Assembly (NCBI GenBank): GCA_034664295.1
Contig: JAXDHV010000014.1
Coordinates: 1-64,000, forward strand
DNA length: 64,000 bases
Reading direction: 5' to 3'
DNA from: Solirubrobacteraceae bacterium
GTDB taxonomy: Bacteria; Actinomycetota; Thermoleophilia; Solirubrobacterales; Solirubrobacteraceae
This document shows positions 4,575 to 34,392 of the stretch, in pieces. The notes under the pieces are model-generated. The model worked only from the letters and a program-made list of their open reading frames with translations. It searched no databases and was not told where the DNA came from. Numbering within the stretch: the first letter of the stretch is position 1; the number at the start of each line of letters is the position of its first letter. The position numbers and the translations under genes are program-made.

Positions 4575-6572
4575 TCACCGGTAGACGTCGACGTACGGGT
4601 CCGCGAACTCCGGCTTGACGCCGGCGAGACAGGCCGACAGCCTGGTGAACACCGGCGTGACCGGCTCCCCCTGGAGGACGACCGTCTCCCGGCCGAGACG
4701 GGCCCGCAGCCCCGCGCAGGTCTCGCCGCTGCCGATCAGCGACAGCGGGTGGTCGAGGTGGTCCCCCCGGAGCATCACCACGGTCGCCGGGCCGGCCGCG
4801 ATCCCCGCCGACCCGGCGCCGAGGCCGGGCAGTCCGGCCTTCAGGACCGGACCGTCGATCTCGCCGGTTGACGCGTGACGGGCGACGTATCCGTCGCTCG
4901 CGACCGCCAGGCCGACCGCGCACGCCCCGGCCGCGACGACCGCCGCCAGGACGGATCGCGCCGCAGATCGCCCGGCGAGGCGCCTCGCAGATGGGGTGCT
5001 CCCGGCTGCGCTGCCCCCGGCCGGGCGGCCGCTCCCGGATCGGCTGCCTGCCGCTGTGGCTCTCACGGCCAAGCGGGCCAACGCGACAACCGCAAGCCCG
5101 CAGAGCAGGCCGAGAAGCAGCGGCCCCGGCCCCGGGACGAACTGGTGGCCGAGCTTGTCGGTCCTGAAGACAGACCAGCCGATCGACCCGACCAGGACCG
5201 CGTCGACTCCCAGGCGCAGCCCCCGCCCCGCGCCGCCGGCCGACAGCGCCAGGGCGAGCGTGGCGGCGGCGATCGCCGGCAGCAGGTAGCGGGTCGCCCC
5301 CGCCGCGAAGTCGCCCCCGTCGATCCCCGTGTACGGGGCCGCGCCCCAGGCGACGAGTGCGACCCCGGCGACCCCGGCGACGGTCAGGGCCCGGCGCGAG
5401 CGGCGCAGCACAGGGACCGCGAGGCCACCGGCGAGCAGGACGAGGCCGCCGGCCATCGTCTGCAGGTAGTCGCTCCCGTGGGCGGCGATCAGGCCCCGCG
5501 GGTGGCTGAGGAAGCTCGGCTCGAGCCCGACCAGCGACGCCTGGACCGGCGTCCCCCAGGGCGCCGCCTCGAGCGGCCAGAACGGCGACCCGTGGACGAT
5601 CAGGTCCCGCAGCGACCAGACGCCCCCGACCGCGATCGCGACCACCAAGCTGACGACGAGCCGGATCCGGTCGTCCCGGAAGGCTGCTGCCAGCGGCCGA
5701 CGGGCCATCACGGCGAGGCCGACGATCAGGATGCCCGGGGTCGTCTTGGTCCCGAGGCACAGGCCCCCGGCGATCACCGCCGGACCGATCAGGCCCGGCC
5801 GCTCCCGGGCGGCGCTCGCCAGCGCCGCGCAGACCGCGAGCCACGCGAGGGCCGCGATGTCGGTGTCAGGGCCGCAGAGCTGGGCTACGACCAGCGGGAG
5901 GACGCAGATCGCGACGACCGCGAGCGTCCGTTCGACAACCAGGACGCCGAGGTTCCGCAGGGCGACCCAGGCGCCGGTGGCCAGGACGGCGAGCAGCACG
6001 ACCGACCAGATCGAACCGACGACCCAGCTCCGCGAGAGGCCGAGCCCCCACGAGACGAGCACCTCGTTGGTGACCGGGTAGTTGGCGACCGCCAGGCCGT
6101 CGAGGATCTCGACGATGCTCCCCGGCCGGCCGTTCTGGACCCAGGCCGACGCGATTGGCAGGTGGTAGATCAACCCGTCCCCGCCGATCAGCGGCCGCCG
6201 CAGCTGCCAGACGATCCACGCGACCCCGAGACCGCCCAGGCCGCCGACCACGCCGACCGTCCGGACGGCGGCGCTCGCCAGCCACCCGGCGATCGCCCCT
6301 CCGATCGAGACCGCCGGGCGCTCGACCAGCACAAGCGTCGCCGCCCACGTCGCGACCGCCGCGACGCCGAGTGCCGCGCTCGATCCGCCCAGCCCGAACA
6401 GCCCCAGCCCGAGCGACTCGCAGACGGCCGCCGCGCACGCGAGCGTGAAGCCGACCAGCAGGCGCTCGAGCGTCCGCCCGCCGAGCACCGAGGCGACCCG
6501 CCAGGCGCCCGCGCCGAGGGCGAGGACCGCGACCACGAGGAGTCCGTGGTGCGCCAGGACCCCGGCGCTCAC
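4575..6572 (-). CDS. large polytopic membrane protein, putative GT-C-fold glycosyltransferase (paralog 1)
   Basis: About 665 aa with more than 12 hydrophobic segments. Conserved blocks shared with the paralog at 20396..22372 are YHLP, AWVQNGRPGS, YPVTNEV, GTKTT, SPFWP and LEPSFLSHP. The GTG start was chosen by alignment with the paralog's N-terminus. Confidence 0.55.
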   Translation of the reverse strand: MSAGVLAHHGLLVVAVLALGAGAWRVASVLGGRTLERLLVGFTLACAAAVCESLGLGLFGLGGSSAALGVAAVATWAATLVLVERPAVSIGGAIAGWLASAAVRTVGVVGGLGGLGVAWIVWQLRRPLIGGDGLIYHLPIASAWVQNGRPGSIVEILDGLAVANYPVTNEVLVSWGLGLSRSWVVGSIWSVVLLAVLATGAWVALRNLGVLVVERTLAVVAICVLPLVVAQLCGPDTDIAALAWLAVCAALASAARERPGLIGPAVIAGGLCLGTKTTPGILIVGLAVMARRPLAAAFRDDRIRLVVSLVVAIAVGGVWSLRDLIVHGSPFWPLEAAPWGTPVQASLVGLEPSFLSHPRGLIAAHGSDYLQTMAGGLVLLAGGLAVPVLRRSRRALTVAGVAGVALVAWGAAPYTGIDGGDFAAGATRYLLPAIAAATLALALSAGGAGRGLRLGVDAVLVGSIGWSVFRTDKLGHQFVPGPGPLLLGLLCGLAVVALARLAVRATAAGSRSGSGRPAGGSAAGSTPSARRLAGRSAARSVLAAVVAAGACAVGLAVASDGYVARHASTGEIDGPVLKAGLPGLGAGSAGIAAGPATVVMLRGDHLDHPLSLIGSGETCAGLRARLGRETVVLQGEPVTPVFTRLSACLAGVKPEFADPYVDVYR

Positions 6573-6612
6573 GCCGAGCGCCCGATCACGTCGACCCGGC
6601 GACCCGCGGTCC

Positions 6613-7743
6613 TCATCGCCCGAGCAGCTCCCGATAGAGCTCCACGTACGCCTCGGTGCACCGATCGGTCGAGAACCTTCCCGCCCGCGCCCGGCAGGCA
6701 GCGCTCGTCCCCGGGTCCCCGGCCAGCTCGAGCACCTCGAGCAGGGCCCGGGCCAGCGCCCCCGGGTCGTCGCCGTCGAACAGCCGGCCGATCTCCGGCC
6801 GGTCGACGATCTCCGGGATCCCCCCGTCGTTCGAACCGACGACCGGCGTCCCGCAGGCCAGCGACTCGGCCAGGACCAGCCCGAAGGCCTCGTCGCGGGA
6901 CGGGAGCGCCGTGACCCATGCGCTCGCATACGCCCGGCTCAAGACGGCCCGGTCGTCGAGCTCGGCGAGCTCGATCCCCTCGCCCACCGGTGCCGCCGCG
7001 ACGCCCTCCGGGGTCGACGGGCGGCTGAGGACCAGGCGGGCGTCCGGTCGGTCGCGCCGCAGGATCTCGAACGCCTCGACCAGCAGCCCGACCCGTTTGC
7101 GCGGCCGGTCGATCGCCGCCGCGCAGACGATCGTCGGCTGCTGCGCCCGCGGCCCTGCCGGCGCGAACGCCTCGAGGTCGACCCCCGGCGCGATCACCCG
7201 CGGCGTGACACCCAGCCACCGCTCGAACGCCGCGGCCGAGAACCGGCTCAACGCGACGACCGCACCCGAGCCGGCGATCACCCGCTGGAGGATCTCGACC
7301 CTCCGCCGCCGGCTGGCCAGCCCCTGGCGGTGGGGGATCCCCATGTGCGAGAAGACGACCGGCCGCCCGGTCCGCTCGCCCCACCGGACGGCCGCCAGGC
7401 CGTCGGTCGGATACAGCGCGTGGGCGATCTCGTCGTCACCGGCCCGGAGCGCCGCATACGAGAACGGGACGTGCGTCAGGTGGTCCTCGTAGACCCGGCG
7501 GCGCAGCCGGCCGTCGGGTGGGCGCCAGACCCGGACGACCTCCAGGCCGTCCTCGACCTTCCGCGACGGCCGGCCGCGAACGCTGGTGATCAGGCGGGGC
7601 GAGTGCCCCCGGGCGAGCAGCCCGTCGGCCAGCTCGCGGGCGAAGCGCTCGGATCCCCGGCGGACCTCCGGCCAGTAGCACGGGTTCAACAGCGCGACCC
7701 GCAGCCCCGCCGGCCCGGCGTCTCCCCCGTCTGGCCGGCTCAC
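6613..7743 (-). CDS. GT4-family glycosyltransferase (glycosyl transferases group 1)
   Basis: C-terminal EAFGLVLAESLACGTPVVGSNDGGIPE motif. The GTG start overlaps the upstream gene's stop (GTGA). Confidence 0.8.
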   Translation of the reverse strand: MSRPDGGDAGPAGLRVALLNPCYWPEVRRGSERFARELADGLLARGHSPRLITSVRGRPSRKVEDGLEVVRVWRPPDGRLRRRVYEDHLTHVPFSYAALRAGDDEIAHALYPTDGLAAVRWGERTGRPVVFSHMGIPHRQGLASRRRRVEILQRVIAGSGAVVALSRFSAAAFERWLGVTPRVIAPGVDLEAFAPAGPRAQQPTIVCAAAIDRPRKRVGLLVEAFEILRRDRPDARLVLSRPSTPEGVAAAPVGEGIELAELDDRAVLSRAYASAWVTALPSRDEAFGLVLAESLACGTPVVGSNDGGIPEIVDRPEIGRLFDGDDPGALARALLEVLELAGDPGTSAACRARAGRFSTDRCTEAYVELYRELLGR

Positions 7744-8777
7744 AGGAAGACGGTCCGGTGACGGACGCTCCCGGCGGCCATCCCGGCGACCTCGACCACG
7801 TCGAGCGCCAGCGCGACCGGCAGCTCGCTGACCGCCCTGATCCGACCCCGCGGCGACGGGCCGTACGACGGCATCGCCTCGAGCGCCCACGGGACGGCCG
7901 CCAGCGCGCCGAGCACCGGCCGCTTGGTCATCCAGCCGACTGCCGCGCCGGCCACCGCCAGGGCAAGCCGAGCATGGCGGGGCTTCCAGAACCAGCCGCC
8001 GCCGGCGGCCGCCCGCCGGAGCTCGGGGTGGGCGGCGACGACGCCCGGGAGGTCGCGCCAGCGCCAGGCGGCCCTGAACACGCCCCGCAGGGAGACCTCG
8101 TCGACCGCGTGGTAGGTCACCACCTCCGGCGCCCCGACATAGGCGACCCCGGTCGCCCGCGCCCGGCAGGCCAGCTCGACATCCTCGACCCAGTCGAGCT
8201 CGTCGTCGAAGCCGCCGAGCGCCTCGAGGACCGTCCGCGGGTAGACGATGTTGCACGTCTGCGACCAGAGGACCGGCGGATCGATCTCCTGCGAGCGCAT
8301 CCGCGGACCCGCGTGGAGGACCCCCAGCTCGTCGGGATCCGGCCGCGTCGCACCCTGGACGATGGCCCCCGGGCTGGCCCGGGCCGCCGCGAGCGCCGCG
8401 GCGAGCCACTCGGCCGGCGGCCGGCAGTCGTCGTCGGTGAAGGCGATCAACGCCGCCGCGGACGCCCGCCAGGCGATGTTGCGCTTGATCGCCGGCCCGT
8501 GACCGGCCGGAGCCCTCAGCTCCCGGAGGAGACCCGCCCGCGCCAGGGGGTGGGTTTGCAAGAGCTCGCTCGTCTCGGGTCCGCGGCTGTCGTGGCAGAC
8601 GAGGACCTCCCACTCCCCCCGGTCGAGCGTCTGGTCCTCGAGGGCGTTCAGCAGCCACCGCAGCCGCAGCGGCCGATCGTGAGACGGCACGACCACCGCG
8701 ATCGCCGGTCCGTCTCCCGCATCGCGAACGCCGTTCGGGCGAACGGCGTTCGAGCGAACGGCGTTCGAGCGACTCAT
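7740..8777 (-). CDS. GT2-family glycosyltransferase
   Basis: VVVPSHDRP and IAFTDDDC (DxD) motifs. The ATG start overlaps the upstream stop (ATGA). The N-terminus carries three SNAVR-type pentapeptide repeats encoded by 15-bp tandem repeats. Confidence 0.8.
   Translation of the reverse strand: MSRSNAVRSNAVRPNGVRDAGDGPAIAVVVPSHDRPLRLRWLLNALEDQTLDRGEWEVLVCHDSRGPETSELLQTHPLARAGLLRELRAPAGHGPAIKRNIAWRASAAALIAFTDDDCRPPAEWLAAALAAARASPGAIVQGATRPDPDELGVLHAGPRMRSQEIDPPVLWSQTCNIVYPRTVLEALGGFDDELDWVEDVELACRARATGVAYVGAPEVVTYHAVDEVSLRGVFRAAWRWRDLPGVVAAHPELRRAAAGGGWFWKPRHARLALAVAGAAVGWMTKRPVLGALAAVPWALEAMPSYGPSPRGRIRAVSELPVALALDVVEVAGMAAGSVRHRTVFL
8726..8770. repeat. 15-bp tandem repeat x3 (GAACGSCGTTCGRGC), each unit containing a GAACG/CGTTC mini-palindrome
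   Basis: gaacgccgttcgggc gaacggcgttcgagc gaacggcgttcgagc lies immediately 3' (on the plus strand) of the GT2 start. It encodes (SNAVR)-type repeats at the GT2 N-terminus. Confidence 0.7.
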
Positions 8778-10000
8778 GGGACCCCGGCCCCGGCCTCGGT
8801 CGCGACCGCCTGGCCGCGCCCCTCGCCGGTCGGCCGCCGCCGGCCGACCCGCCGGCCGAGCCCCACGGCATGGCGCTCGAGCCCGTACCAGCTCACAGCC
8901 GCGAGGGCTCCGGAAATCGACAGGGCGGCCACCAGGAAAGCTGCCGTGCCGAACCGCTCGGGCACCCGGTGGCGGCTGAGCTCGATCACGACGGCGAGAT
9001 GCCAGAGGTAGAGGCCGTAGGAGATCTGGCCGACCCACCGCAGCCAGCCCGCCCCGAGCAGCCGGCGCACCCAGCCGCGTCCGGCGCTCCCGAAGACGGC
9101 CGGCGCGAGCAGGCCGAGGGCGATCGCCGCCCGCAGCTCGTGGGGCACGACCCAGCCGCTCAGCGTCTTCGGTCCGCCGAAGAGCGCCTGCGAGTGGACC
9201 AGCGCCCAGTAGCAGACGGCCGCCAGGGCCCACGGGAGCCACGGCGCCCGGTCGATCAGGCGCACCCCGCGGGAGTCCCGGCCGGCCAATCCGACCGACA
9301 GGACGGCGAGGCCCATCCCGACCGCGAACAGGTCGACCGACGCCGGGAGTGAGATCAGGGCCGGGTAGTACCGGGGCGAGGCATCCGAGCTCAACTGGAG
9401 CCAGGCGATCTGCCAGGCGATCGACCCGATCGAGAGGACGACGAGGGCGCCGAGCTCGGTGAGCAGGAACGACCGCCGCCCGCGGATCGCGACCCTGCGC
9501 AGCCCCAGCGCGAGCGCGACGAGGCCGATGTAGAAGGTCAGCTCGACGTCGAGCGTCCACGCCTGGGCCATCCCCCGGTCGAGCGTCCGGGTGTCGTAGA
9601 CCTGGAGGAAGCCGAAATACGTCCCGATCCCGTGGAGCGTGAAGACCCCGTCGAGTCCGAGGACGATCGCCACGACGATCAGGGCGAGCCAGTAGGCCGG
9701 CGCGATCCGCAGGACGCGGCGTGCGGCGTACGGGCCGAGGCGCGGGCCGGGGGTCCCGTCGAAGCGGGCCTGGGCGAACGGCCGGTAGAGGAGGAAGCCG
9801 GAGATCGCGAAGAAGATGACGACCCCCTCGGTCGGGAAGCCGGCCGTCCGCTGGGTCAGGTAACCGGCGAGCGACCCGCCGAGGCCGGTCGTGTAGTACG
9901 ACGCGTGGTAGACGAGCACGCTGACGGCGGCGATCGCCCGTAGCGAGTCGAAGGACTCGAACCGCGGTCGGCTCAGCTCGGCCTCCGGGCCCGCAGCGAC
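8774..10000 (-). CDS. acyltransferase family 3 (OafA/OatA-like integral membrane O-acyltransferase)
   Basis: FDSLRAIAAVSVLVYHA near the N-terminus and about 10 TM segments. Its stop overlaps the GT2 start. The start codon is uncertain because there is no ATG/GTG/TTG near the expected position; ATG 10117 would overlap the upstream gene by 145 bp. Confidence 0.65.
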   Translation of the reverse strand, partial: VAAGPEAELSRPRFESFDSLRAIAAVSVLVYHASYYTTGLGGSLAGYLTQRTAGFPTEGVVIFFAISGFLLYRPFAQARFDGTPGPRLGPYAARRVLRIAPAYWLALIVVAIVLGLDGVFTLHGIGTYFGFLQVYDTRTLDRGMAQAWTLDVELTFYIGLVALALGLRRVAIRGRRSFLLTELGALVVLSIGSIAWQIAWLQLSSDASPRYYPALISLPASVDLFAVGMGLAVLSVGLAGRDSRGVRLIDRAPWLPWALAAVCYWALVHSQALFGGPKTLSGWVVPHELRAAIALGLLAPAVFGSAGRGWVRRLLGAGWLRWVGQISYGLYLWHLAVVIELSRHRVPERFGTAAFLVAALSISGALAAVSWYGLERHAVGLGRRVGRRRPTGEGRGQAVATEAGAGVP

Positions 10001-10740
10001 GCGTAGAAGCCGCCCATCGGCTTCTTCGCCTTCGGCCGGTGGATGCCCGTGTGCTTGACCTCGACGAAGCCCGCCGTCCACGGCCAGGCCTTGAGGCAGC
10101 TGAGGTTGGCATGCCACCAGTTGAACTGGGTCACCAGCGGCTCGAAGTGGGCGACCGGACGCCGGGGCGAGAGGATCGTGTCGGTCACCGAGAACGTCTC
10201 CAGCATGATCAGCTCGCCGCCCGGCTTGAGTGCCGCGAGCGCCCGCTCGAGTGCGCGGATCGGGTCACGCAGGTGGAGGAGGATCGCCCCGAGGAAGATC
10301 ACATCGACCGGTCCGCCGACGATCTCGGGCGTCAGGTCGTAGATGTCGCACTCGACCCGCCGGACCTTCGACGAGAGGGCCTCCGAGGCGAGCCGGAAGC
10401 CCCGGCCGAGGCGGATGTCCCAGTCGTTCATCCGGTCGACGAGCTCCGGCCGGCGGTTTGGCGGCCACTCGGCTGCGTCGAGCCGGGCGACGTCGATCGC
10501 GAGGCTCTGCGCGCCGCGCCGCTCGAGCTCGAAGGCCCAGAAGCCGTCGAAGGTGCCGACATCGAGTGTCCGCCGGCCGGTCAGGTCCTTCGGGAGGATC
10601 CTCGGGGCGACCGACCGCAGGTCGACGTTCCCGGGTGTCAGGACCCCCGGCGCGAGCTCGAGCGTGTGGTACCAGTGGGGGTTCGCCGCGACCGCCTCCC
10701 GCGCTCGGGCGGCGGCCTCGGCTTCGGCCGTCGGGCTCAT
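9973..10740 (-). CDS. class I SAM-dependent methyltransferase, CmoB/DUF1698-like (paralog 1 of 3)
   Basis: WYHTLELAPGVLTPG N-terminal block, the SAM-binding motif LDVGTFDGFWAFELERRGA, and LHLRDPIRAL. Paralogs lie at 23396..24238 and 28353..29063. Confidence 0.75.
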   Translation of the reverse strand: MSPTAEAEAAARAREAVAANPHWYHTLELAPGVLTPGNVDLRSVAPRILPKDLTGRRTLDVGTFDGFWAFELERRGAQSLAIDVARLDAAEWPPNRRPELVDRMNDWDIRLGRGFRLASEALSSKVRRVECDIYDLTPEIVGGPVDVIFLGAILLHLRDPIRALERALAALKPGGELIMLETFSVTDTILSPRRPVAHFEPLVTQFNWWHANLSCLKAWPWTAGFVEVKHTGIHRPKAKKPMGGFYASLRARRPS

Positions 10741-10791: not shown

Positions 10792-12000
10792 GTGCGAGCC
10801 CCCCCGAAGAGCCGGATTCGGCGGCTGCGCGCCGGTCGCGTCGCGGTGGTCCTCGCCGGACTGCTCGGGGCGGCGCCGGCCGGCTCGGAGTCATCGCCGC
10901 CGCCCGCCGGCTTGGGCTCTGGCTCTGGAACACGCGCGGCGGGTGCGACCGGCAGGCGGGTGACGATCGCCGTGTTCGGGGACTCGGTCGTCGAGGCGTA
11001 CACGGTCCCCGGCTTCCTGCGGTGGGGCCTCGTCCCGCAGATCGGCGACTCGATGGTCGCCGCCGGGTTCGAGCGGGGCGGGGTCGGCCTGATCCCGGCG
11101 ACGCCGTTTCGGTGGCACTTCAACCACTTCGTCCCCTACAGCGTGAACCCGGCGCCGGCCGACGGCTGGCTGTTGGTCGGCTACGGGCTGGCCGGGAGCG
11201 ACGGGCCGAGCGGCTACAGCGCGCTGGCGTCCTCGCCGGCGGCGAGCGCGACCGCCCCGATCGACGACCCGCTGGTCGGCGTGCTCTACACGAAGAACAC
11301 GACGTCCGGATCGTTCACCGTGACCGCGGGATCCGCGACCTGGACGATCGACGCTCATTCGACCGGGCCTCCGACGCCGGTCGAGACCTGGCTCCAGATG
11401 CCGCCGGGAGCCAGGTCGATCACCGTCCACGGGCCGACCACCGGGACCCTCCTCTTCGACGGGGTCGTCGGCCGCCGCCCGGTCGCGGCCGCCCGGATCC
11501 AGGTCGAGGTCGACAACCTCGGCCATCAGGCCCACCTCCTCGGCCGGGACCTCTCCCCCCGGGTGATCGGCTCCCTGACCCAGCAGCGCTATGACGTCTC
11601 CGTCCTCCTCGGCGGCTACCTCTCCGAGCTGATCGCCGCGTCGCAGCCGGGGACCTACCGGGAGGACCAGTACCTGACGGCGCTGCGCAGGCGGGCCAGC
11701 CTCGTCAGAGCCTACGGCGGCCGCTGCCTGATCGTCGATCCGTCGCCGATCCCCGTCCCCGCGCGGATCGCGGTCCGGTATGCCGCGATCGACAGGCGGG
11801 CGGCGGCGCAGGCAGGTTGTGGCTACAGCCGGGCGCTCGCCCATCTCTGGAGCTCGGCGACGTCGGTCAGGCTGGGCCTGACGTTGGCCGACGACATCCA
11901 CCCGACGGCGGCCGGCTACCGCCTGATCGCCCGGGCGCTCGAGCCCGTGCTGGAGCGGATGACCCGCGAAGTCGTCCGGAACGTGAGTGCAACCCGGTGA
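10792..12000 (+). CDS. secreted SGNH/GDSL-family hydrolase (esterase/lipase or acyltransferase-like)
   Basis: Signal peptide (RLRAGRVAVVLAGLLGAAPAGS), block I VFGDSVVE and C-terminal DDIHPTAAG (DxxH). Confidence 0.7.
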   Translation: MRAPPKSRIRRLRAGRVAVVLAGLLGAAPAGSESSPPPAGLGSGSGTRAAGATGRRVTIAVFGDSVVEAYTVPGFLRWGLVPQIGDSMVAAGFERGGVGLIPATPFRWHFNHFVPYSVNPAPADGWLLVGYGLAGSDGPSGYSALASSPAASATAPIDDPLVGVLYTKNTTSGSFTVTAGSATWTIDAHSTGPPTPVETWLQMPPGARSITVHGPTTGTLLFDGVVGRRPVAAARIQVEVDNLGHQAHLLGRDLSPRVIGSLTQQRYDVSVLLGGYLSELIAASQPGTYREDQYLTALRRRASLVRAYGGRCLIVDPSPIPVPARIAVRYAAIDRRAAAQAGCGYSRALAHLWSSATSVRLGLTLADDIHPTAAGYRLIARALEPVLERMTREVVRNVSATR

Positions 12001-13405: not shown

Positions 13406-13406
13406 C

Positions 13407-25820: not shown

Positions 25821-25843
25821 TAGTTGCCAGCGGCTGGCAACTA
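25821..25843. promoter_or_regulatory. 23-bp near-perfect palindrome TAGTTGCCAGcgGCTGGCAACTA
   Basis: Lies 60 nt downstream of the flippase stop in a 725-bp gap without an intact gene. Confidence 0.3.
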
Positions 25844-25899
25844 TCTGTTGAGAGACCGCAATCTCCTCCCCCTCGGGCCCGACCGAGCCACCAGAGAGC

Positions 25900-26320: not shown

Positions 26321-26484
26321 GGAGAGTCTCCTCGCCGCGGTCTGATCGAATGAGTCGCCGGTCCCCCGGACGCCGTCGCGTCGATGCTCTCGGCCTGGTC
26401 GACGTCGAGTCCGGACGCGTGGGGGCAACCTATTGACTCACCATCACCCGATGTGTGAGATCGGACACACTCGCCAGACCGCAG

Positions 26485-27342
26485 TCAGCGGGCGCGTCGC
26501 AGCTCAGCAGCCGCCGAGCCGACCACTCGGGCGGCGTACTCCAGGCGCGCCAACCACAAGAGGTCGCGGTCGACCTCGGGGTCCCCACCCCTGCTGGTGA
26601 GTGCCCAGTCGCCCCTCACGGCTGGGGAGGGGTGGCGCCAGTAGCGCCAGCCCACCGCCATCGCCAGGCGGTGGTGGTGTTGATTGCTTGACCACCCGTG
26701 ACGAAACGCCCGCCCCAGGATCGGCCGCAGGCGGGTCTCCGGATCGTGGTGGACGACGGCGTCCGCGCAGTAGGAAAGCTCATGGCCGGCCGCCCGGGCG
26801 CGCAGGCAGAGGTCGACGTCCTCACCGATCTGGAGGTACGCCGGGTCGAAGCCGCCGATCGCCTCGAGCACCGCACGCCGGGCGCCGAGGTTGGCGCTGG
26901 CCGCCCAGTGGCGATCGCGGACGTTGGCCTCCTGATCAAAGCGCCACAGCGCCTCGAGACGCTCGCACGGCCCGGGATCCGCAGTCGCGTCGACGACCAC
27001 CGGACCAGCGACGAGCGGCGCACGACCGAGGCAGGAGACGAGCCCGGCGAGCCAGCCCCGGCCCACCCGGCAGTCGCCGTCGGTGAAGGCGATCAGCGGC
27101 GCCCCGGCCGCCGCGACCCCGACGTTCCGGGCGCGGGCGCGGTTGGCCCACGATTCCGAGATCACCACCGCCCCGCTCGCCCGACCGACCTCGGCGGCCC
27201 GTTCGTCGCGCGATCCGTTGTCGACGACCACGACCTCGAAGCTCGCGCGGTCGAGCGTCTGTGCGGCAAGGCTCGACAGCAGCGCACCGAGGGAGTCTGA
27301 CCCGTCCCGGACGGGAACGACGACGCTGATCTCGAGTGGCAC
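26485..27342 (-). CDS. GT2-family glycosyltransferase
   Basis: ISVVVPVRDGSDSL, VVVVDNGS and IAFTDGDC motifs. Confidence 0.8.
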   Translation of the reverse strand: MPLEISVVVPVRDGSDSLGALLSSLAAQTLDRASFEVVVVDNGSRDERAAEVGRASGAVVISESWANRARARNVGVAAAGAPLIAFTDGDCRVGRGWLAGLVSCLGRAPLVAGPVVVDATADPGPCERLEALWRFDQEANVRDRHWAASANLGARRAVLEAIGGFDPAYLQIGEDVDLCLRARAAGHELSYCADAVVHHDPETRLRPILGRAFRHGWSSNQHHHRLAMAVGWRYWRHPSPAVRGDWALTSRGGDPEVDRDLLWLARLEYAARVVGSAAAELRRAR

Positions 27343-27348
27343 GCGGGG

Positions 27349-28236
27349 TCAGTGGGCCGGGGAGGCCGAGTGCTCGCCGGAGCGGTGGTAGTGCAGGCGC
27401 CCGGCGTCCCTCGCGTAGAGGCAGACCAGGTCGACCAGCGCGAAGAGCGCCTCCTCCGGCCGGCCGGCCCGCGCCGCGGCCAGCAGGTAGTGGGGAACAC
27501 GCCGGACCAGATCGCGCGGAGTCGGACCCGGCGCACTGCCGGCATACCGCTCCTCGAGCCACGCGAGACCCGCCCCGTGGCGGGCGAGCTGGCGGAAGAG
27601 GTCGTAGAAGTGGGCTCGGTTCTCGTGGTCGACGTACGCCTGCGGGCGTGACTCCAGCCGCCAGCCGGCCTCCTGGAGGCGCCAGCAGAGGTCGGCGTCG
27701 CCAGCCGACAGCGCGTAGGTCAGGAATCCGCCGATCCCTTCGAAGGCGACCCGCCGGACCAGGCAGTTGGCCGTCTGGGCATACGGCCGATAAGGATAGG
27801 ACAGCGTGATCTCCTGGTCCATCTTCCGCCGGGCCGAGACGTACCGGGCACACCGCGTCTCGGCGGTTCGCCAGTCGTGGACCCCACCCGCCAGGATCCC
27901 GACGTCCGCCTCAGGCAGCGGCTCGAAGTACCGGTCGAGCAGATCCGCCGGTGGCGCGGTGTCGGCGTCGATGAAGAGGATCCACTCCGCCCGGGTCGCG
28001 GCGACCCCGGCCCCCCGGGCGTGCCAGGACGAGCCGACCTCACCAGCGTGGAGGACCCCGACGCCCGGCGCAAGGACGCCGGCCGGCGGCACGTGGACCG
28101 GTCGGTTGTCGACGAGCAGCAGCTCGTCGTCGGGGCCGACCCGCAGCCGACCGAGCCGCCTGAGCATCTCCTCGAGCTCGTCCTGCGGACCCGCGAACGG
28201 CACGATCACGCTGACGCCCGGCCGCAGAGTGGTCAC
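27349..28236 (-). CDS. GT2-family glycosyltransferase
   Basis: VSVIVPFAG and ILFIDADT motifs. GTG start assumed; the upstream ORF extension is Arg-rich junk. Confidence 0.7.
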   Translation of the reverse strand: MTTLRPGVSVIVPFAGPQDELEEMLRRLGRLRVGPDDELLLVDNRPVHVPPAGVLAPGVGVLHAGEVGSSWHARGAGVAATRAEWILFIDADTAPPADLLDRYFEPLPEADVGILAGGVHDWRTAETRCARYVSARRKMDQEITLSYPYRPYAQTANCLVRRVAFEGIGGFLTYALSAGDADLCWRLQEAGWRLESRPQAYVDHENRAHFYDLFRQLARHGAGLAWLEERYAGSAPGPTPRDLVRRVPHYLLAAARAGRPEEALFALVDLVCLYARDAGRLHYHRSGEHSASPAH

Positions 28237-28352
28237 GGCCGGATTATCGCACCGGTCGTCGACCGCGAAACTCCCCCCCCGGCGTCCCCGGCGTGCGCGG
28301 CGTCCCCGCCGGCTACCGACGTCTCGAGGGTGCCCGGCCATAAGCTGGCGGC

Positions 28353-29063
28353 GTGGAGTTGATCGACAGGGCGCTCGCGGCCAGCTGGTACCACGTGATC
28401 GAGCTCCAGCCGGGAACGGTGACCCCCGGCTGGTTCGACATGCGGCCGTTCGTCCCCCAATACGGGCTGCCGGACCGGCTCGACGGGCTCCGGGTCCTCG
28501 ACGTCGGGACGTGGGACGGATTCTGGGCCTTCGAGCTCGAGCGGCGGGGGGCGGCCGAGGTCGTCGCGCTCGACCTCGACCACGAGGCGGACCTCGACTT
28601 CCCGCCCCGCCGCCGGCCCAGGGAGTTCCCGACCCGCCTGCGGGGCGAGAGCTTCAAGATGGCCCACGAGCTGAGGGGATCGAAGGTCAGGCGGATCGAC
28701 TGCAGCATCTACGACGCCCGGCCGGAGGACCTCGGGACCTTCGACCTCGTCTTCTGCGGGTCGGTGATCATGCACCTCCGCGACCAGTTGCTCGCCCTCG
28801 AACGGATCGCCGCGCTCTGCACGGGGACCTTCGTGTCAGCCGAGGAGTACGACCGTCTCGCCGAGCTGATCCCCTTCCCCGTCTCCCGATACCGGGCCGA
28901 CCGCGACGCAGCCGTCGTCTTCTGGCTGCCGAGCGCCCGCACCTGGCGGCGGATGCTCTGGACGGCGGGGTTCGACCGGGTCGAGGAGAAGGCCCGCTTC
29001 ACGCTCGAGTCGACCAACGGGATCCACGTCCGGCACGTCGTCCACCATGCGCACAAGCGATAG
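28353..29063 (+). CDS. class I SAM-dependent methyltransferase, CmoB/DUF1698-like (paralog 3 of 3)
   Basis: WYHVIELQPGTVTPG, LDVGTWDGFWAFELERRGA and MHLRDQLLAL. Confidence 0.75.
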   Translation: MELIDRALAASWYHVIELQPGTVTPGWFDMRPFVPQYGLPDRLDGLRVLDVGTWDGFWAFELERRGAAEVVALDLDHEADLDFPPRRRPREFPTRLRGESFKMAHELRGSKVRRIDCSIYDARPEDLGTFDLVFCGSVIMHLRDQLLALERIAALCTGTFVSAEEYDRLAELIPFPVSRYRADRDAAVVFWLPSARTWRRMLWTAGFDRVEEKARFTLESTNGIHVRHVVHHAHKR

Positions 29064-29082: not shown

Positions 29083-30384
29083 TCAGACGATCTTCGGCCG
29101 GTAGCGGACGAGCCGCGGGAGGCGCAGCAGCGCGCGCGGTGACCCGCGGACCTTGAAGCGGCGGCCGAGGATCGGACCGATCGGGGTGAGTCCGCGGGCG
29201 GCAAGATCGATCCAGTCCTTCCAGGAGCTCTCGATCGTCACGTCGGCAGTCGGCGCCTCGCCGGCGACGGGGCGGGCGGTGCTCGAGTCGATCAGGACGT
29301 GCCATGGGAGGGCATCGGTGAACCGCCACTGGATGCACAGCGGCCGGGCACCGGTACGGGTCGGGTCGACCGACGCGGCGACCGTGTCGAAGAAGAGGGC
29401 CTGAACCTCCGGCGTGATGTCCAGCGGCCGGTTCGGCTCACCGAGCACGCCGGCCGCGGTCAGGAGGATCACCCGCCGGGCGATCTCCTCGTCGCCGAGT
29501 GAGAAGTCGACCGGGAAGACCCCGCGGGGCATCTCCTCGACGGGGAAGCCGGCCGCCCGCCACTTGCTGCGGATCGAGCCGATCCCGAAGGCGTAGATGT
29601 CCTCGAGCTCGAACCCGTAGCACCGGGTGTACGAGCGGTCCCAGTTCGGGGGGACGAACACCCCGGCGACGTAGCGGAGGACCTCGGCCATCAACTCGGC
29701 GACCGCCGACTTGCACTCTTCCGACTGGGCGAAGCAGTCGGCCAGGGTCTTCACGCCGAAGCCGATGTGCCGCTGCTCGTCGAGTGAGACCATCGTCATC
29801 CCCTCGCTGAATCCCGGCATCCCCCCCGACTTGGCGAAATGTGCCTCGATGAAGTGCTGGCCGGGCTGGGCGAGGGTCGCCTCCACCACCATGTGGTAGA
29901 GGGCGATCGCCTGGGCGAACTTCGGCAGCGACCGGTCCCTCCGGAGCTCGTCGGCCATCCGATCGAGCCGCTCGAAGACCCGCCGGTATCCCCAGCTCTG
30001 ATCGACTCGGCTGGCGGCGACCGTCTCGGCGATGCCGCCGGTCGAGCCGATCACGTCGGTGAAGAAGCGATGGAAGAAGACCGCGTGGCGCGCCTCGTCG
30101 ACCTGCTGGGTCGTCAGGAAGTACTTCTGATCGAGCGTCGGCGCCGCGTCGATGTACGGCGCCAGACTGACGGCGACCGAGTCCTCGCCGGCCAGGAACA
30201 TCGAGTACAGCCAGACCGCCGACTTCCGCTGGATCTCGCTCAGGCCGGCCCACCCGGCGACGTCTTGCGTGAAGTCGATCGTCGTCGCCCGCCACTGGCC
30301 GTGCTGCTCCCAACGGCGGTAGAGATCGACGTATGAGATCGCGTCGACAGGGCTCGACTGGCCCGGATGAAGCTCTACGGCCAT
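29083..30384 (-). CDS. R2-like (ferritin-like di-metal carboxylate) oxidase fused to a C-terminal SCP2 sterol-carrier domain
   Basis: R2/R2lox metal ligands in order: E (MFLAGEDSV), ExxH (DEARHAVFF), E (MVVEATLAQ), ExxH (DEQRHIGFG). The C-terminal about 120 aa (…KDWIDLAARGLTPIGPILGRRFKVRGSPRALLRL) is SCP2-like. Confidence 0.7.
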   Translation of the reverse strand: MAVELHPGQSSPVDAISYVDLYRRWEQHGQWRATTIDFTQDVAGWAGLSEIQRKSAVWLYSMFLAGEDSVAVSLAPYIDAAPTLDQKYFLTTQQVDEARHAVFFHRFFTDVIGSTGGIAETVAASRVDQSWGYRRVFERLDRMADELRRDRSLPKFAQAIALYHMVVEATLAQPGQHFIEAHFAKSGGMPGFSEGMTMVSLDEQRHIGFGVKTLADCFAQSEECKSAVAELMAEVLRYVAGVFVPPNWDRSYTRCYGFELEDIYAFGIGSIRSKWRAAGFPVEEMPRGVFPVDFSLGDEEIARRVILLTAAGVLGEPNRPLDITPEVQALFFDTVAASVDPTRTGARPLCIQWRFTDALPWHVLIDSSTARPVAGEAPTADVTIESSWKDWIDLAARGLTPIGPILGRRFKVRGSPRALLRLPRLVRYRPKIV

Positions 30385-30517: not shown

Positions 30518-31129
30518 TCACGCCCGGTGGACGGCCCCGAGGAGGGCGGCGTATGAGCGAATCAGCGCGGCCCGCTCCGCGGCGATCAGCGGGCTGTGCG
30601 GGTCGCATCCGGCGGCGACCCAGGCATCTGACTCGCGCATCGCGACGGCTCGTTGGACCGCGGCGGCGCGGACGGTCTCCGGCGCGACGCCGTAGACGTG
30701 GCTGTAGAGCGCCGCCAGCGCATCGGCCAGGAGATCCACGGTGTTCGGTGCGCTGTCCGTCGAACCGCCCCGCGGGGTGTCCGGCGATCCGCGGTGCTGG
30801 TCGGCTCGGTGGATCGCCCACCATTCGACCTCGAGCCGGGCGGCCTGCTCGACGTCGAACTCCTCACCGTGGCGAACGGCGACCAGGCGGTAGAAGCTCC
30901 GCATGCACCGCCGGGCCAATTCGGGGTCGTTCTCGGGGTACGGCGCCCAAGCCTGGTTGGCCCGCAGGACGAGCCATGCCCCGCGGATTGCGTGCGGCCA
31001 CCGGAGAGCGAAGCCGTGGCGAGTCAGGCCGACCGCGGCCCAGAGGAACGCCGGCCAGTCGCGGAGGTAGTAGGCGACCCACGCGCGGGCTTCGAGCTCG
31101 CCGACGCGGCGCGGGTCGAACGAGCGCAT
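30518..31129 (-). CDS. conserved hypothetical protein
   Basis: Protein-like sequence (ARAWVAYYLRDWPAFLWAAVGLTRHGF...). Internal ATG chosen as start. Confidence 0.45.
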   Translation of the reverse strand: MRSFDPRRVGELEARAWVAYYLRDWPAFLWAAVGLTRHGFALRWPHAIRGAWLVLRANQAWAPYPENDPELARRCMRSFYRLVAVRHGEEFDVEQAARLEVEWWAIHRADQHRGSPDTPRGGSTDSAPNTVDLLADALAALYSHVYGVAPETVRAAAVQRAVAMRESDAWVAAGCDPHSPLIAAERAALIRSYAALLGAVHRA

Positions 31130-31179: not shown

Positions 31180-32472
31180 TCACCTCTCTGCCCGGTCGGG
31201 CCGGCCGGTTCGTCGGTGCCCTTCGGCCGAGCCGCTCACGTCTGAGATCCTCCCGACCGAGCCGCTCGTGTCTGAGCTCTCCCAGGTTCGGACGGCCTCC
31301 GCGAGGACGGCTTCGACACGGGTGTTGAAGGCGGCGTCGGTGTGCGCCCGGGCGGTCCGCAGTCCCCCGTGGCGAAGCTTCGCCCTCAGCGCGCGGTCAT
31401 CCGCCAGCTGCGTCAGCCGGTCGGCCAGTGCGGCCGGATCCCCCGGGGTGTAGAGCAGGCAGTTCTCGCCGTCCCGGAGATACTCGGCCGATCCGCCGGT
31501 CCCGGTCGCGACGACCGGGCGCTCGCAGGCCATCGCCTCCAACGGGACGAGTCCCCAGGGCTCGGCCCACTCGACCGGGAAGACGAGGACGTCGGCACCG
31601 GCGTAGACGGGGGGCAGGTCGTCGCGCGGGCGCGGCCCGTCGAATGTGACCCGATCGGCCAGCCCGAGGTCGGCGACGAGCTCCCGGAGGGCGAAGAGGC
31701 ATGTCTCGTCTCCCCCACCGACGACCCGCAGGCTGGCCTCGGCCGGTAGGAGGGCGAGCGCACGGATCGCGGTGGCGATGCCCTTGCGAGGATCGATCCG
31801 CCCGACGTAGAGCAGCCGCCAGGCCCACTCGCCGGGAGGCGACGATCCGTCGAGGAAGGTCGGGTCGATTCCCCCGTGAGCGACCTCCGACCGGCCGATC
31901 GCGGGCCACCGCTCGAGTGAGGCACGGCGGGTGTCCTCGGATGCGAAGACGAAGCGGGCGCTCGCCTGGGGGTCGAATCTGGCGGGCAGGCCGGTGACCC
32001 GCTCGAGCAGGTCGGCCGAGACGCCGGGCCGGGTCGCGAAGCGGATCCAGGCATCGACGAGGGGTCCGTAGATCAGCCAGGCGTCGTTGACGAAGGCCAC
32101 GGCCGGAAGCCCCTGGCGGCGAGCCCGCTCCAGCAGGGAGAGCGACATCCCCCCCATCGCCCACCAGGCGACCACGTCCGGCCGGAAGTCCTCGAGGTGT
32201 CGATCGAACGTCGCCGCGTTGTGGCGCTCGAGCCCGAGCCGGGCGCGGGGGCCGAGCCGGGGGAAGACATGGTCGCGCCAGTACCACCGAAGATCCCGAT
32301 GGACGTCGGGTGGGTCTGGAAGGTCGGCTGCGGAGACTTCCCGGTGGTCGCTCGCGAGGACGCGGACGTCATGGCCCCGAGCGCGGAGGTCCTCGACCGC
32401 AGACTGCCACACCAGCTCGTACCCGCCGAGGTGGTGCGGCGGGTACATGCTCCCGACGCAGAGGATCCGCAC
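31180..32472 (-). CDS. GT4-family glycosyltransferase
   Basis: EPWGLVPLEAMACERPVVATGTGGSAEY motif. GTG start. The 3' end contains an imperfect 26-bp direct repeat (SDTSGSVGRISDVSGS). Confidence 0.8.
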   Translation of the reverse strand: MRILCVGSMYPPHHLGGYELVWQSAVEDLRARGHDVRVLASDHREVSAADLPDPPDVHRDLRWYWRDHVFPRLGPRARLGLERHNAATFDRHLEDFRPDVVAWWAMGGMSLSLLERARRQGLPAVAFVNDAWLIYGPLVDAWIRFATRPGVSADLLERVTGLPARFDPQASARFVFASEDTRRASLERWPAIGRSEVAHGGIDPTFLDGSSPPGEWAWRLLYVGRIDPRKGIATAIRALALLPAEASLRVVGGGDETCLFALRELVADLGLADRVTFDGPRPRDDLPPVYAGADVLVFPVEWAEPWGLVPLEAMACERPVVATGTGGSAEYLRDGENCLLYTPGDPAALADRLTQLADDRALRAKLRHGGLRTARAHTDAAFNTRVEAVLAEAVRTWESSDTSGSVGRISDVSGSAEGHRRTGRPDRAER

Positions 32473-32490: not shown

Positions 32491-32916
32491 CTAGACGTCG
32501 ACCCCCTGGCCGTGTCGGTAGGCACCGACGACGACGACGATCGCCAGCAGAAATCCGAGATAGGCGCCGACCCCGAGGAAGCTCGTCTCGGCGAAGTACT
32601 TCATCAGGAGGAAGAAGACGACCAGCGCGGCGACGGCGCAGCGGGTCATCGCCCGACCGAGCTGGGTCGTCGGGACCCTCGTCTGCGGACGGAACTCGTC
32701 GAGGGCGAGGTCGACGACGACGGCGATCGTCAGGAGGAGAGCGAGGACACCCCAGAGGGCCCCGGGGGCGGCGGTCGCCCGGACCGAGAAGGAGATCTGC
32801 GCACCGAGCAGGGCGACCGAGCTGTGGAGCCACGGGAGGAAGAGGAGGTCGACGATCAGGAGGATCCCGCCGGCGCCGACGAGCAGGTTGTCGCGACCGA
32901 GCTTCGACAGATCCAT
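32491..32916 (-). CDS. small integral membrane protein (3-4 TM), hypothetical
   Basis: 141 aa with hydrophobic segments throughout. Confidence 0.5.
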   Translation of the reverse strand: MDLSKLGRDNLLVGAGGILLIVDLLFLPWLHSSVALLGAQISFSVRATAAPGALWGVLALLLTIAVVVDLALDEFRPQTRVPTTQLGRAMTRCAVAALVVFFLLMKYFAETSFLGVGAYLGFLLAIVVVVGAYRHGQGVDV

Positions 32917-33021
32917 GTCACTCCCCCGTCTCGGTGCGCCGGCGCCTCGTCGGCCGGCGTCTCGGGGAACCTACCGGCGGGTCCGGTCGGTGGCCAACCG
33001 AGAGCCCTTAGGATGCCCTGA

Positions 33022-34392
33022 ATGGCTCCAGACCCGACGATCTTCAAGGCGTACGACATCCGCGGCCTCTACGACACGCAGATCGACGGGAACGTCGCTC
33101 AGCAGATCGGGAGGGCGTTCGCGATGGTGTTGAGCGAGCTGTCGGGCAAGGAGACCGAGGACCTCAGGGTCGGAATCGGACACGACATGCGCCTGAGCGC
33201 GCCAGGCCTTGCGTGGCGCTACCGGGTGGGACTGATGAAGGAGTGCGTGACGGTCATCGACATCGGCGAGGTCGGCTCGGAGATGCTCTACTACCTCGTG
33301 GGGTCGCGCGAGCTCGACGGTGGCCTGATGTGCACGGCATCCCACAACCCGGCGGAGTACACCGGAGCGAAGCTGGTCCGGGAGGGCGCGCTCGCCCTGT
33401 CGGGCGACACCGGCATCCAGGACATCCGGAAGATCATCGAGTCGGGGACGCTGGGGGCGGCGCGGAACAAGGGCGCCCACGAGGAGCTCGACATCTACGA
33501 GGAGTTCCAGGCGGCGGCGCTCGGCTTCGTCGACGCGGACGCGATCAAGGGTCTTAAGGTCGTCGTCGACGGCGGCAACGGGATGGCCGGACCGATGGTC
33601 GGACCGATCCTGCGGGGCCTGGACATCGAGCTGATCGAGACGTACTTCACCCCGGATGGGAACTTCCCCGGCCACGAGCCGAACCCGCTGCTGCCGGAGA
33701 ACCGGCAGTTCGTGATCGACCAGGTGCGCGAGCACAAGGCCGACCTGGGGATCGCGTGGGACGGGGACGCCGACCGGTGCTTCTTCATCGACGAGACTGG
33801 CCGCTTCGTGGACGGCGACTTCCTGACGGCGCTGCTGGCCGAGTCGCTGCTGGTCAAGAATCCGGGCGAGGCGATCCTCTACGACGTCCGGGCGAGCCGG
33901 GCCGTCGCCGACACCGTGCGGGTGGCCGGAGGGACGCCGCACATGAACCGGGTCGGCCACGCGTTCTTCAAGTCGCGGATGCGCGACGAGGCCTCCCTGT
34001 TCGGCGGCGAGGTCTCGGGTCACTACTACTTCCGCGACTTCTACTGCGCGGACTCGGGGACGCTTCCGGCCCTCCTGATCCTCGAGCTGGTCGCCAAGGC
34101 GGGACAGACGCTCTCTGAGCTGCTCGAGCCGTACCGGTCGACGTACTTCATCTCCGGTGAGATCAACAGCGAGGTCTCCGACGCCGAAGGACGGATCGAG
34201 GCGATCGCCGCGAAATACGTCGACGCCCGGGTGACCCGGCTGGACGGGATCTCGATCGACTATGACGACTGGCACTTCAACGTGCGCTCGTCGAACACCG
34301 AGCCGCTGCTGCGGCTCTGCCTGGAATCCCTCGTCTCCGAAGCGGACATGGAGCGCCGTCGGGACGAGGTCCTCGAGCTGATCAGGTCGTGA
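33022..34392 (+). CDS. manB: phosphomannomutase/phosphoglucomutase
   Basis: Active-site CTASHNPAEYTGAKL and typical alpha-D-phosphohexomutase domains. Confidence 0.9.
   Translation: MAPDPTIFKAYDIRGLYDTQIDGNVAQQIGRAFAMVLSELSGKETEDLRVGIGHDMRLSAPGLAWRYRVGLMKECVTVIDIGEVGSEMLYYLVGSRELDGGLMCTASHNPAEYTGAKLVREGALALSGDTGIQDIRKIIESGTLGAARNKGAHEELDIYEEFQAAALGFVDADAIKGLKVVVDGGNGMAGPMVGPILRGLDIELIETYFTPDGNFPGHEPNPLLPENRQFVIDQVREHKADLGIAWDGDADRCFFIDETGRFVDGDFLTALLAESLLVKNPGEAILYDVRASRAVADTVRVAGGTPHMNRVGHAFFKSRMRDEASLFGGEVSGHYYFRDFYCADSGTLPALLILELVAKAGQTLSELLEPYRSTYFISGEINSEVSDAEGRIEAIAAKYVDARVTRLDGISIDYDDWHFNVRSSNTEPLLRLCLESLVSEADMERRRDEVLELIRS

Follow-up and report, generated by a model that had tools for sequence, protein, structure and literature searches.

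We analysed a 64,000-nucleotide stretch of DNA from a Solirubrobacteraceae bacterium (GenBank assembly GCA_034664295.1, contig JAXDHV010000014.1, positions 1 to 64,000 of the forward strand), hereafter the window, in which the genes of a candidate surface-glycan system lie dispersed between positions 4575 and 34392. At a guanine-plus-cytosine (GC) content of ~71%, the mechanical list of open reading frames (ORFs) was mostly noise and could not be used, so genes were called from third-position GC instead, and the called genes were annotated by Pfam and NCBIfam scans. Every element listed by a first-pass annotation, which had proposed a methylated (manno)glycan or glycolipid pathway here, was recovered at the same coordinates or a few codons off. 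For the second large membrane protein the end at 20396 held, whereas the start lies at 22351 rather than 22372. Related loci in other genomes are numbered L001 to L032, and one search for such loci was seeded with 12 closer DUF8201 sequences. The glycan genes of the window, with short names for glycosyltransferases (GT), methyltransferases (MT), an acyltransferase (AT3) and large membrane proteins (MP), are as follows.

MP1, 4575-6572, minus strand: DUF8201-family candidate membrane glycosyltransferase of GT-C fold, 665 aa
GT4a, 6613-7743, minus strand: Pfam Glycos_transf_1 and Glyco_transf_4; 4-bp overlap between its start and the GT2a end
GT2a, 7740-8696, minus strand: Pfam Glycos_transf_2
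AT3, 8774-9919, minus strand: Pfam Acyl_transf_3, OafA-type domain, 381 aa
MT1, 9973-10740, minus strand: Pfam Methyltransf_23, 'WYH' family, first gene of the MT1-AT3-GT2a-GT4a-MP1 operon
SGNH, 10792-12000, plus strand: secreted protein of SGNH/GDSL hydrolase fold, from motifs and a signal-like N-terminus; divergent from MT1
MP2, 20396-22351, minus strand: second DUF8201 paralogue of predicted GT-C fold, 651 aa
Small secreted repeat protein, ~22700-23341, plus strand: upstream of MT2-Wzx and on the same strand; third-position GC signal from ~22700
MT2, 23396-24238, plus strand: 'WYH' family, 13 bp upstream of Wzx
Wzx, 24252-25760, plus strand: MOP-family flippase, Pfam Polysacc_synt_3 (E=7e-34)
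GT2b, 26485-27342, minus strand: Pfam Glycos_transf_2
GT2c, 27349-28341, minus strand: Pfam Glyco_tranf_2_3
MT3, 28353-29063, plus strand: 'WYH' family, divergent from GT2c
203-aa protein, 30518-31129, minus strand: downstream of GT4b, without a family match
GT4b, 31180-32472, minus strand: Pfam Glycos_transf_1 (E=3e-34)
Small membrane protein, 32491-32916, minus strand: four transmembrane (TM) segments by hydropathy, upstream of GT4b, membership of the locus uncertain
ManB, 33022-34392, plus strand: phosphomannomutase/phosphoglucomutase (PMM/PGM) with all four PGM_PMM domains, conserved border of the locus

Gene order, with the gaps and strands taken into account, suggests these transcription units: MT1-AT3-GT2a-GT4a-MP1; MT2-Wzx, perhaps led by the secreted protein; GT2c-GT2b; and GT4b with the 203-aa protein and the next gene, perhaps led by the small membrane protein. 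That next gene (29083-30384, minus strand), which sits between MT3 and GT4b, encodes an R2-like ligand-binding oxidase (R2lox; NF006200, 137 bits against a cut-off of 194) fused to a C-terminal SCP2/alkyl-sulfatase-C lipid-binding domain. The locus falls into two halves parted by ~8.4 kb of unrelated genes (12770-20173) for PNPOx, a DUF2470/HugZ-like protein, an OmpR-type regulator, GlnA, a GH24 lysozyme, VanY and DUF5996. A 725-bp spacer (25761-26484) separates the convergent Wzx and GT2b genes, which stand 24 bp apart in L029; it showed no coding signal, no Rfam family and no homologue in any fetched locus.

Fold and conserved residues of the DUF8201 proteins

MP1 and MP2 are paralogues (38% identity over 460 aa, E=1e-58, BLASTP). 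MP2 has orthologues of its own (76% identity to homologue P0097), and 45 of 113 homologues are nearer to MP2 than to MP1. Neither protein has a Pfam match at E<=0.01, weak PMT_2 matches (E~0.009) occur in just two of 40 DUF8201 family members, and the family does not belong to the existing Pfam or CAZy GT-C families by sequence. No PDB sequence, and hence no GT-C chain, was matched by MP1 in a single-sequence search or by a 40-sequence profile. NCBIfam yielded just a chance-level match to LIC_10190, which was rejected, and the sole family label derives from a precomputed weak match to PF26626 (DUF8201) on some relatives. The Pfam, NCBIfam and PDB sequence searches were uninformative, and MP1 and MP2 were identified by fold comparison alone.

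MP1 comprises ~16 TM helices and a C-terminal domain of ~105 aa with two invariant cysteines. Foldseek comparison of its AlphaFold2 model (predicted local distance difference test, pLDDT, 92.8; predicted TM-score, pTM, 0.93) agrees with a GT-C fold, and the N-terminal TM module superposes on known GT-C enzymes of the GT-C_A class. At the level of predicted structure, MP1 and MP2 are thus shown to have the GT-C fold. Across 40 DUF8201 homologues D132, H137, E170, K276, R428, Y429 and the two C-terminal cysteines are invariant, and MP2 has all of them. Counting positive charges on the modelled helices gave 17 Lys/Arg per 86 'inside' loop residues against 1 per 31 short 'outside' residues, which places the invariant residues, the HGSPxWP loop and the C-terminal domain on the predicted extracytoplasmic side. 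As in enzymes of the GT-C_A class, a conserved acidic residue lies in the first large loop predicted to be extracytoplasmic, together with the basic and aromatic residues expected for the lipid phosphate. The GT-C-like character proposed in the first-pass annotation is therefore borne out at the level of models: the fold and the outward-facing invariant residues argue against MP1 and MP2 being transporters or members of another non-GT family.

Searched with a DUF8201 profile, 1.84 billion representative proteins yielded 444 clusters (at 50% identity) at E<=1e-30 and 2520 at E<=1e-10, the named matches coming mainly from Solirubrobacterales and other Thermoleophilia. ArnT, PMT, Emb/Aft and the GT-C enzymes of three-component systems use polyprenyl-phosphate-linked sugars outside the cell. 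By analogy, the DUF8201 pair, with its Asp/His/Glu loop and Lys/Arg-Tyr residues predicted to face outward, may extend, decorate or attach a glycan outside the cell from such donors. In L024 and L025 a 246-aa GT2 between two DUF8201 genes resembles AglJ, PpgS and Dol-P-hexose transferase (62-81 bits, below the cut-offs), and L028 also carries a PpgS/AglJ-like GT2; the placement in L024 would support a polyprenyl-phosphate-sugar donor for DUF8201. Alternatively, these proteins could act on the Wzx-flipped unit as a polymerase or an en-bloc transferase or ligase, analogous to Wzy, an oligosaccharyltransferase (OST) or WaaL, rather than as GT-C enzymes that add monosaccharides. The Pfam and NCBIfam scans detected no priming transferase, Wzy, Wzz or LCP ligase in the 64-kb window, which favors this alternative; we give it a real, if minor, chance.

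Arrangement of the locus in related genomes

Several kinds of relatives bear on whether the dispersed genes belong together. The close relatives L002-L004 keep the order lysozyme-GlnA-regulator-...-SGNH followed by MT1-AT3-GT2a-GT4a-MP1, so that the position of SGNH is also conserved. The distant Solirubrobacterales loci L005-L011 have Wzx divergent from GT2a-GT4a-MP1, which brings a gene of the second half of the window locus directly next to the operon of the first half; in most of them a second DUF8201 paralogue lies within 10 kb, as do GT2b and AT3, and 4-bp overlaps join GT2a, GT4a and MP1 in L006. Orthologues of GT2b were found in L005, L006, L010, L011 and L029, and the GT2a-GT4a pair is conserved in L002-L011, L024, L029 and L031.

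Two further arrangements join both halves. L024 carries, in one co-oriented 17-kb block, GT4b (56% identity), two DUF8201 genes, MT2 (69%), AT3 (50%), Wzx (56%), GT2a (56%) and GT4a (66%). In L029/L032, the orthologues are contiguous in an 18-kb block with order and orientation as in the window: GT4a-GT2a-GT2a'-MT1; MT-MT2-Wzx; GT2b-GT2c-Epi-NTP; MT3-...-GT4b; ManB-MBL, where MBL is a metallo-beta-lactamase. The identities are 76% for GT4a, 62% for GT2a, 70% for MT1, 72% for MT2, 63% for Wzx, 65% for GT2b, 63% for GT2c, 73% for MT3, 65% for GT4b, 71% for ManB and 63% for MBL. Between MT3 and GT4b, where the window has the R2lox-SCP2 gene, L029 holds three further methyltransferase genes and a GT2, and its cluster contains nine methyltransferase genes in all. 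A 209-aa gene without a Pfam match stands beside the L029 GT4b orthologue, in the same place as the 203-aa protein of the window; the likeness is positional. Orthologues of GT4b also occur in the L030 (57%) and L031 (56%) clusters, and the ManB-MBL pair flanks the cluster in L028 as well as in L029.

The synteny in L024 and L029/L032 upholds the proposal that the dispersed genes are one functionally linked glycan locus, and the best reading is that the window carries, in split form, a conserved locus with ManB-MBL as its right border. We therefore favor, with a probability of roughly 0.6, a single lipid-carrier-dependent surface-glycan system that unrelated genes have broken up into two or three parts.

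Two or more independent envelope-glycan systems could instead be mere neighbors, a GT-C decoration and O-acylation module (MT1-AT3-GT2a-GT4a-MP1 with SGNH) lying beside a Wzx-dependent methylated polysaccharide system (MT2-Wzx, GT2b, GT2c, MT3, GT4b and ManB). The 8.4 kb of unrelated genes between the halves would fit such a division, as would the finding of the modules apart: no DUF8201 gene was found in the examined part of the L029 contig, where methyltransferase, GT and Wzx genes are present and the left flank is YebC and RuvCAB, and the DUF8201-GT2a-GT4a-Wzx loci of L005-L011 have no methyltransferase within 10 kb. However, Wzx of the second half is the divergent partner of GT2a-GT4a-MP1 in these same loci, with GT2b nearby; MT1-GT2a-GT4a directly abut MT2-Wzx in L029; L024 mixes both halves; and the window has only one flippase. 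Separate systems thus seem unlikely.

Sulfotransferases occur in the L026, L030 and L031 clusters, a 3'-phosphoadenosine-5'-phosphosulfate (PAPS) synthase in L026 and sulfatases in L030 and L031, which suggests that Solirubrobacterales glycans bear sulfate in addition to methyl groups. Related clusters also carry Bac_transf (L026, L030) and Wzz (L031), and L031 has a PMT_2-type GT-C where DUF8201 might be expected. A glucose-1-phosphate cytidylyltransferase-like gene and a 4,6-dehydratase gene adjoin the clusters in L002, L004, L008, L024, L026 and L029; the pair, absent from the window, hints at 6-deoxyhexoses. The 'manno' in the first-pass annotation is not sustained, given these CDP-glucose-type genes in relatives and a mutase that scores 430 bits against the PMM/PGM cut-off of 618 and falls below the PMM equivalog cut-offs as well.

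Some features of the arrangement stand beside this question. In L002 and L004, unlike in the window, a nucleoside diphosphate (NDP)-sugar gene pair lies downstream of MP1, which suggests a rearrangement on the MP1 side of the window locus. An ORF at 3314-4327 (plus strand) has a sigma-70 region 2 domain and shifting third-position-GC frames that suggest a frameshift, and an IS110-family transposase gene (420-1256, minus strand) lies near the left end of the window. Between the halves (14331-18812), the OmpR-type regulator gene overlaps the end of glnA in a GlnR-like arrangement, followed by the GH24 phage-type lysozyme gene, an unassigned gene and one for a VanY-like peptidase; the lysozyme-glnA adjacency is kept in L002, so the lysozyme/VanY insert is probably not a prophage.

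The three methyltransferases

MT1, MT2 and MT3 are class I S-adenosylmethionine (SAM) enzymes of 236-280 aa (Methyltransf_23). They are indeed paralogous, with pairwise identities of 41-44% (BLASTP E 3e-36 to 1e-51) and the WYH...TPG and LDVGT(F/W)DGFWAFE blocks in all three. The description of them as closely related did not stand: the duplications are old, and the orthologues of each enzyme form a separate set at 65-75% identity. MT2 and MT3 have hundreds of orthologues each at 60-77% identity, and the other two methyltransferases of the window are 37-48% identical to the same sets. Orthologues of MT1 were found in L002 (95%), L004 (90%) and L029 (70%).

Scores of 51.6-70.7 bits (MT1, 53) against the TIGR04290 (meth_Rta_06860) cut-off of 300 indicate that the three enzymes are related to that family but are not members. 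The nearest solved fold to the AlphaFold2 model of MT2 (pLDDT 88.5) is CmoB (Foldseek E=3e-11, TM-score 0.60, 18-22% identity), and among PDB sequences at E<=1 MT1 matched only CmoB and generic methyltransferases. CmoB has ~320 aa, with an N-terminal domain of ~90 residues ahead of the Rossmann fold and a nearly invariant carboxy-SAM (Cx-SAM) ligand, Tyr-200. The CmoB alignments of the window methyltransferases begin at chain residues 113-119, the N-terminal ~90 residues being absent, and at the position of Tyr-200 MT2 has a leucine (HMMER against chain 4p7c: 'lgslllhlrdp' versus 'SMGVLYHRKSP'). The positions of CmoB Lys-91 and Arg-315 fall outside the aligned stretches, and we infer a histidine at both from motif position. 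Carboxymethyl transfer from Cx-SAM was considered and judged unlikely, in view of the leucine at the Tyr-200 position. No CmoA-like gene was noticed in the window, although no search aimed at CmoA was made. Judged from these alignments and scores, the methyltransferases appear to be CmoB-like in fold only, and are not CmoB.

We then considered genomic context, using ten independent contexts of MT2 and MT3 orthologues, of which eight are carbohydrate-related. Besides L024 and L029, these are L022, with the methyltransferase in an operon with GH2; L023, where the MT2 orthologue adjoins Wzx, with a GT4 and another methyltransferase; L026, a Wzm/Wzt ABC-transporter cluster with the sulfotransferase, PAPS synthase and Bac_transf genes; L028, where ManB-MBL stand with GT2 and methyltransferase genes; L030, with an MT3 orthologue among Bac_transf, Wzx, GT2, GT4 and AT3; and L031, with an MT3 orthologue among Wzz, GT2, GT4, PMT_2 and Wzx. 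The MT3 orthologues in the glycan clusters of L029, L030 and L031 share 71-73% identity with the window enzyme. In the two remaining contexts, both housekeeping (L001, from a cultured Paraconexibacter, and L027), the MT2 orthologue lies away from GT genes. The first-pass view of these enzymes as companions of glycosyltransferases thus stands for most of the sampled contexts, together with their separation from the tRNA enzyme CmoB, and the synteny with GT genes is not universal. From genomic context we infer O-methylation of sugar hydroxyls.

A different role, as tRNA (mo5U/cmo5U-type), lipid or small-molecule methyltransferases whose GT neighborhood is incidental, would agree with CmoB as nearest structure and best PDB sequence match, with the two orthologues away from GT genes, and with the Joint Genome Institute (JGI) label 'tRNA (mo5U34)-methyltransferase' that hundreds of family members carry. 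However, the CmoB scores are far below the cut-offs (28.6-37.2 bits, MT1 37, against 275 for TIGR00452; 27.9-35.1 bits against 209 for NF011650). These scores, the missing N-terminal domain and the leucine at the Tyr-200 position make the JGI label probably an over-annotation. Moreover, the natural-product and sugar O-methyltransferases AtmM, RebM and MitM rank close behind CmoB against the MT2 model, RebM and AtmM matching it almost as well. The carbohydrate contexts, the order relative to Wzx and GT2 genes kept between the window and L029, and the several paralogues per genome likewise count against an incidental neighborhood, and we regard such a role as improbable.

Proposed pathway and comparison with known systems

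Wzx, the GT-C proteins predicted to face outward, AT3 and the secreted SGNH protein together point to export and extracytoplasmic finishing of a lipid-linked glycan, and the combination of Wzx, GT-C and AT3 fits export and the earlier proposal of assembly on a polyprenyl-phosphate carrier. Based on protein families and genomic context, the pathway could run as follows. In the cytoplasm, GT2a, GT2b, GT2c, GT4a and GT4b would build the glycan on polyprenyl-phosphate, with hexose-1-phosphate presumably supplied by the flanking PMM/PGM, and MT1, MT2 and MT3 would methylate sugar hydroxyls of the lipid-linked intermediate as variable decorations. Either this glycan on its lipid carrier or a lipid-linked sugar donor would then be flipped across the membrane by Wzx/MOP, and the DUF8201 pair may act at the outer face. 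AT3 and the separately encoded SGNH protein would O-acylate the exported glycan as a split version of OafA. The priming phosphoglycosyl transferase would be encoded outside the 64-kb window, like any polymerase, chain-length regulator or cell-wall ligase.

The individual components agree with these assignments to different degrees. Wzx, with its Polysacc_synt_3 match and multiple TM segments, is a MOP flippase by family. AT3 (Acyl_transf_3, 65 bits; ~8 hydrophobic segments) lacks the fused SGNH domain of OafA-type enzymes; SGNH is instead encoded separately, on the opposite strand and two genes from AT3, with FGDS and DDIH motifs and a signal-like N-terminus visible in its sequence. A split AT3 and SGNH arrangement is plausible, with SGNH as the candidate partner of AT3. 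The best NCBIfam matches of GT2a are EpsD and MftF, both below cut-off, and GT2b is MftF-like (145 bits against a cut-off of 280). Mycofactocin glycosylation, suggested by these MftF matches and a faint likeness of the methyltransferases to MftM, was rejected: none of the scores reaches its cut-off, and mft genes are absent. The secreted repeat protein (22700-23341) has no Pfam or NCBIfam match and shows a signal-like N-terminus after an internal methionine, and the small membrane protein (32491-32916) gave only chance-level family matches.

Several observations weigh against a single system of this kind. The modules (GT core, GT-C genes and methyltransferases) are separable across genomes, since methyltransferases occur without DUF8201 in L029, DUF8201 without methyltransferases in L005-L011, and MT2 away from GTs in L001 and L027. 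In L003 (5118-6559), just 44 aa are left of MT1, from its C-terminal end, beside intact AT3-GT2a-GT4a-MP1 (MP1, 68% identical), so the methyltransferase is dispensable there. SGNH scores 25.5 bits for Lipase_GDSL_2, below the cut-off of 32.9. In addition to the priming, polymerization, chain-length and ligation genes that the scans of the window did not detect, no small GT2 resembling a polyprenyl-phosphate-sugar synthase was found in the window or in L002-L012. Literature searches on DUF8201 returned no mention of the family and no biochemical data, and those on TIGR04290 and DUF1698 nothing relevant and no biochemical data for the methyltransferase family. A search on Solirubrobacter cell-wall glycosyltransferases and Thermoleophilia envelope glycans likewise returned nothing relevant.

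Thermoleophilia, including Solirubrobacterales, are abundant soil actinobacteria. The locus offers a testable role for DUF8201, a sizeable orphan family of membrane proteins, which would probably found a new glycosyltransferase family if its members are GT-C enzymes, and the evidence suggests that a family in which thousands of proteins are auto-annotated as 'tRNA (mo5U34)-methyltransferase' consists of glycan-cluster enzymes. A GT2-GT4-Wzx core, GT-C genes and variable methyltransferase, sulfotransferase and acyltransferase decorations form separate modules, which mirrors O-antigen-like diversification in a Gram-positive soil lineage. We hypothesize, tentatively and with more doubt than confidence, that DUF8201 is a new GT-C family that, with a battery of CmoB-fold methyltransferases (three in the window, nine in L029), may equip Thermoleophilia with a surface polysaccharide that is heavily O-methylated and O-acylated and would be the exported equivalent of the mycobacterial polymethylated polysaccharides (PMPS), which are cytoplasmic.

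The rest of the window holds genes of other kinds. Genes for two ATP-grasp ligases and a major facilitator superfamily (MFS) transporter accompany one for a bacterial nitric-oxide synthase oxygenase domain (E=2e-124) at 35772-40555; together they may form a cassette that makes a small molecule (nitration or peptide ligation). A 615-aa ORF (43234-45081, plus strand) has a strong third-position-GC signal and no Pfam match. An operon for an amine oxidase, DUF1365 and a cyclopropane-fatty-acyl-phospholipid synthase (53335-56611, plus strand; CMAS E=6e-86) is a lipid-modification module unrelated to the glycan methyltransferases. An Hcp-like protein (T6SS_HCP, E=2e-14) is encoded at 57360-57830 (plus strand); type VI secretion is not expected in an actinobacterial genome.

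Signature genes of the mycobacterial methylglucose lipopolysaccharide (MGLP) pathway are GpgS, GH57 and OctT. The first-pass annotation had likened the locus to MGLP and to the methylmannose polysaccharide (MMP); both polymers are cytoplasmic (PMC2674218), and the MMP cluster encodes four soluble enzymes, MeT1, MmpH, pMeT3 and ManT (PMC9883506). A cytoplasmic polymer of this type is highly improbable here: the likeness goes no further than an actinobacterial host with several methyltransferases beside GTs (GT4 and GT2) and an acyltransferase (the nine methyltransferases of L029 would make heavy methylation plausible), whereas these small clusters have no flippase or GT-C and the window locus, with its flippase, predicted outward GT-C, membrane AT3 and secreted SGNH, appears to export its product with machinery that a cytoplasmic pathway would not need, no GH57, GpgS, OctT or MmpH-like gene was found by Pfam scans of the window, and the PDB matches of MT1 reveal no specific PMPS homology.

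The window methyltransferases resemble CmoB and TIGR04290 in that CmoB is the closest solved fold, with the Rossmann core and the C-terminal segment aligned, and in their weak TIGR04290 matches. Unlike CmoB, they lack the N-terminal domain, have leucine for Tyr-200 and occur in glycan clusters rather than with tRNA modification genes.

Among GT-C systems, DUF8201 differs from EmbA/B/C, AftA/B/D, PimE, MptA/B and Pmt in showing no sequence similarity to them and in its context of Wzx, GT2/GT4 and methyltransferase genes; to our knowledge, Thermoleophilia have no known arabinogalactan or lipoarabinomannan (LAM). GtrABC and CsbB/GtcA/YfhO are three-component systems, the characterised pathways nearest in logic to this locus. 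In such a pathway, a polyprenyl-phosphate-sugar synthase and a MOP-superfamily flippase serve a GT-C enzyme with a C-terminal binding domain, and the pentofuranose system of the Citrobacter O-antigen founded GT136 (Kelly et al. 2024, PMC11127046). The present locus shares with them a GT-C fold with an extra C-terminal domain predicted to be extracytoplasmic, a MOP-superfamily flippase, a polysaccharide locus and, in L024, a PpgS/AglJ-like GT2 between two GT-C genes. It differs in that DUF8201 is unrelated by sequence, two paralogues occur per genome, the window lacks a polyprenyl-phosphate-sugar synthase, its flippase is of the full-size Wzx type and a GT2-GT4 pair goes with the GT-C gene.

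Wzx/Wzy loci for O-antigen, capsule or exopolysaccharide (EPS) share with it Wzx, several GT2 and GT4 genes, AT3 and SGNH, a mutase at the border and strain-variable decoration genes. Unlike in those loci, neither a priming transferase nor Wzy or Wzz is present in the window, distinct genes encode AT3 and SGNH, and GT-C paralogues take the place expected for the polymerase or ligase. Taken together, the logic of the system is that of the standard lipid-carrier pathway and leaves central concepts unchanged; the locus is an uncharacterised variant of the lipid-carrier-based, strain-variable surface-glycan loci.

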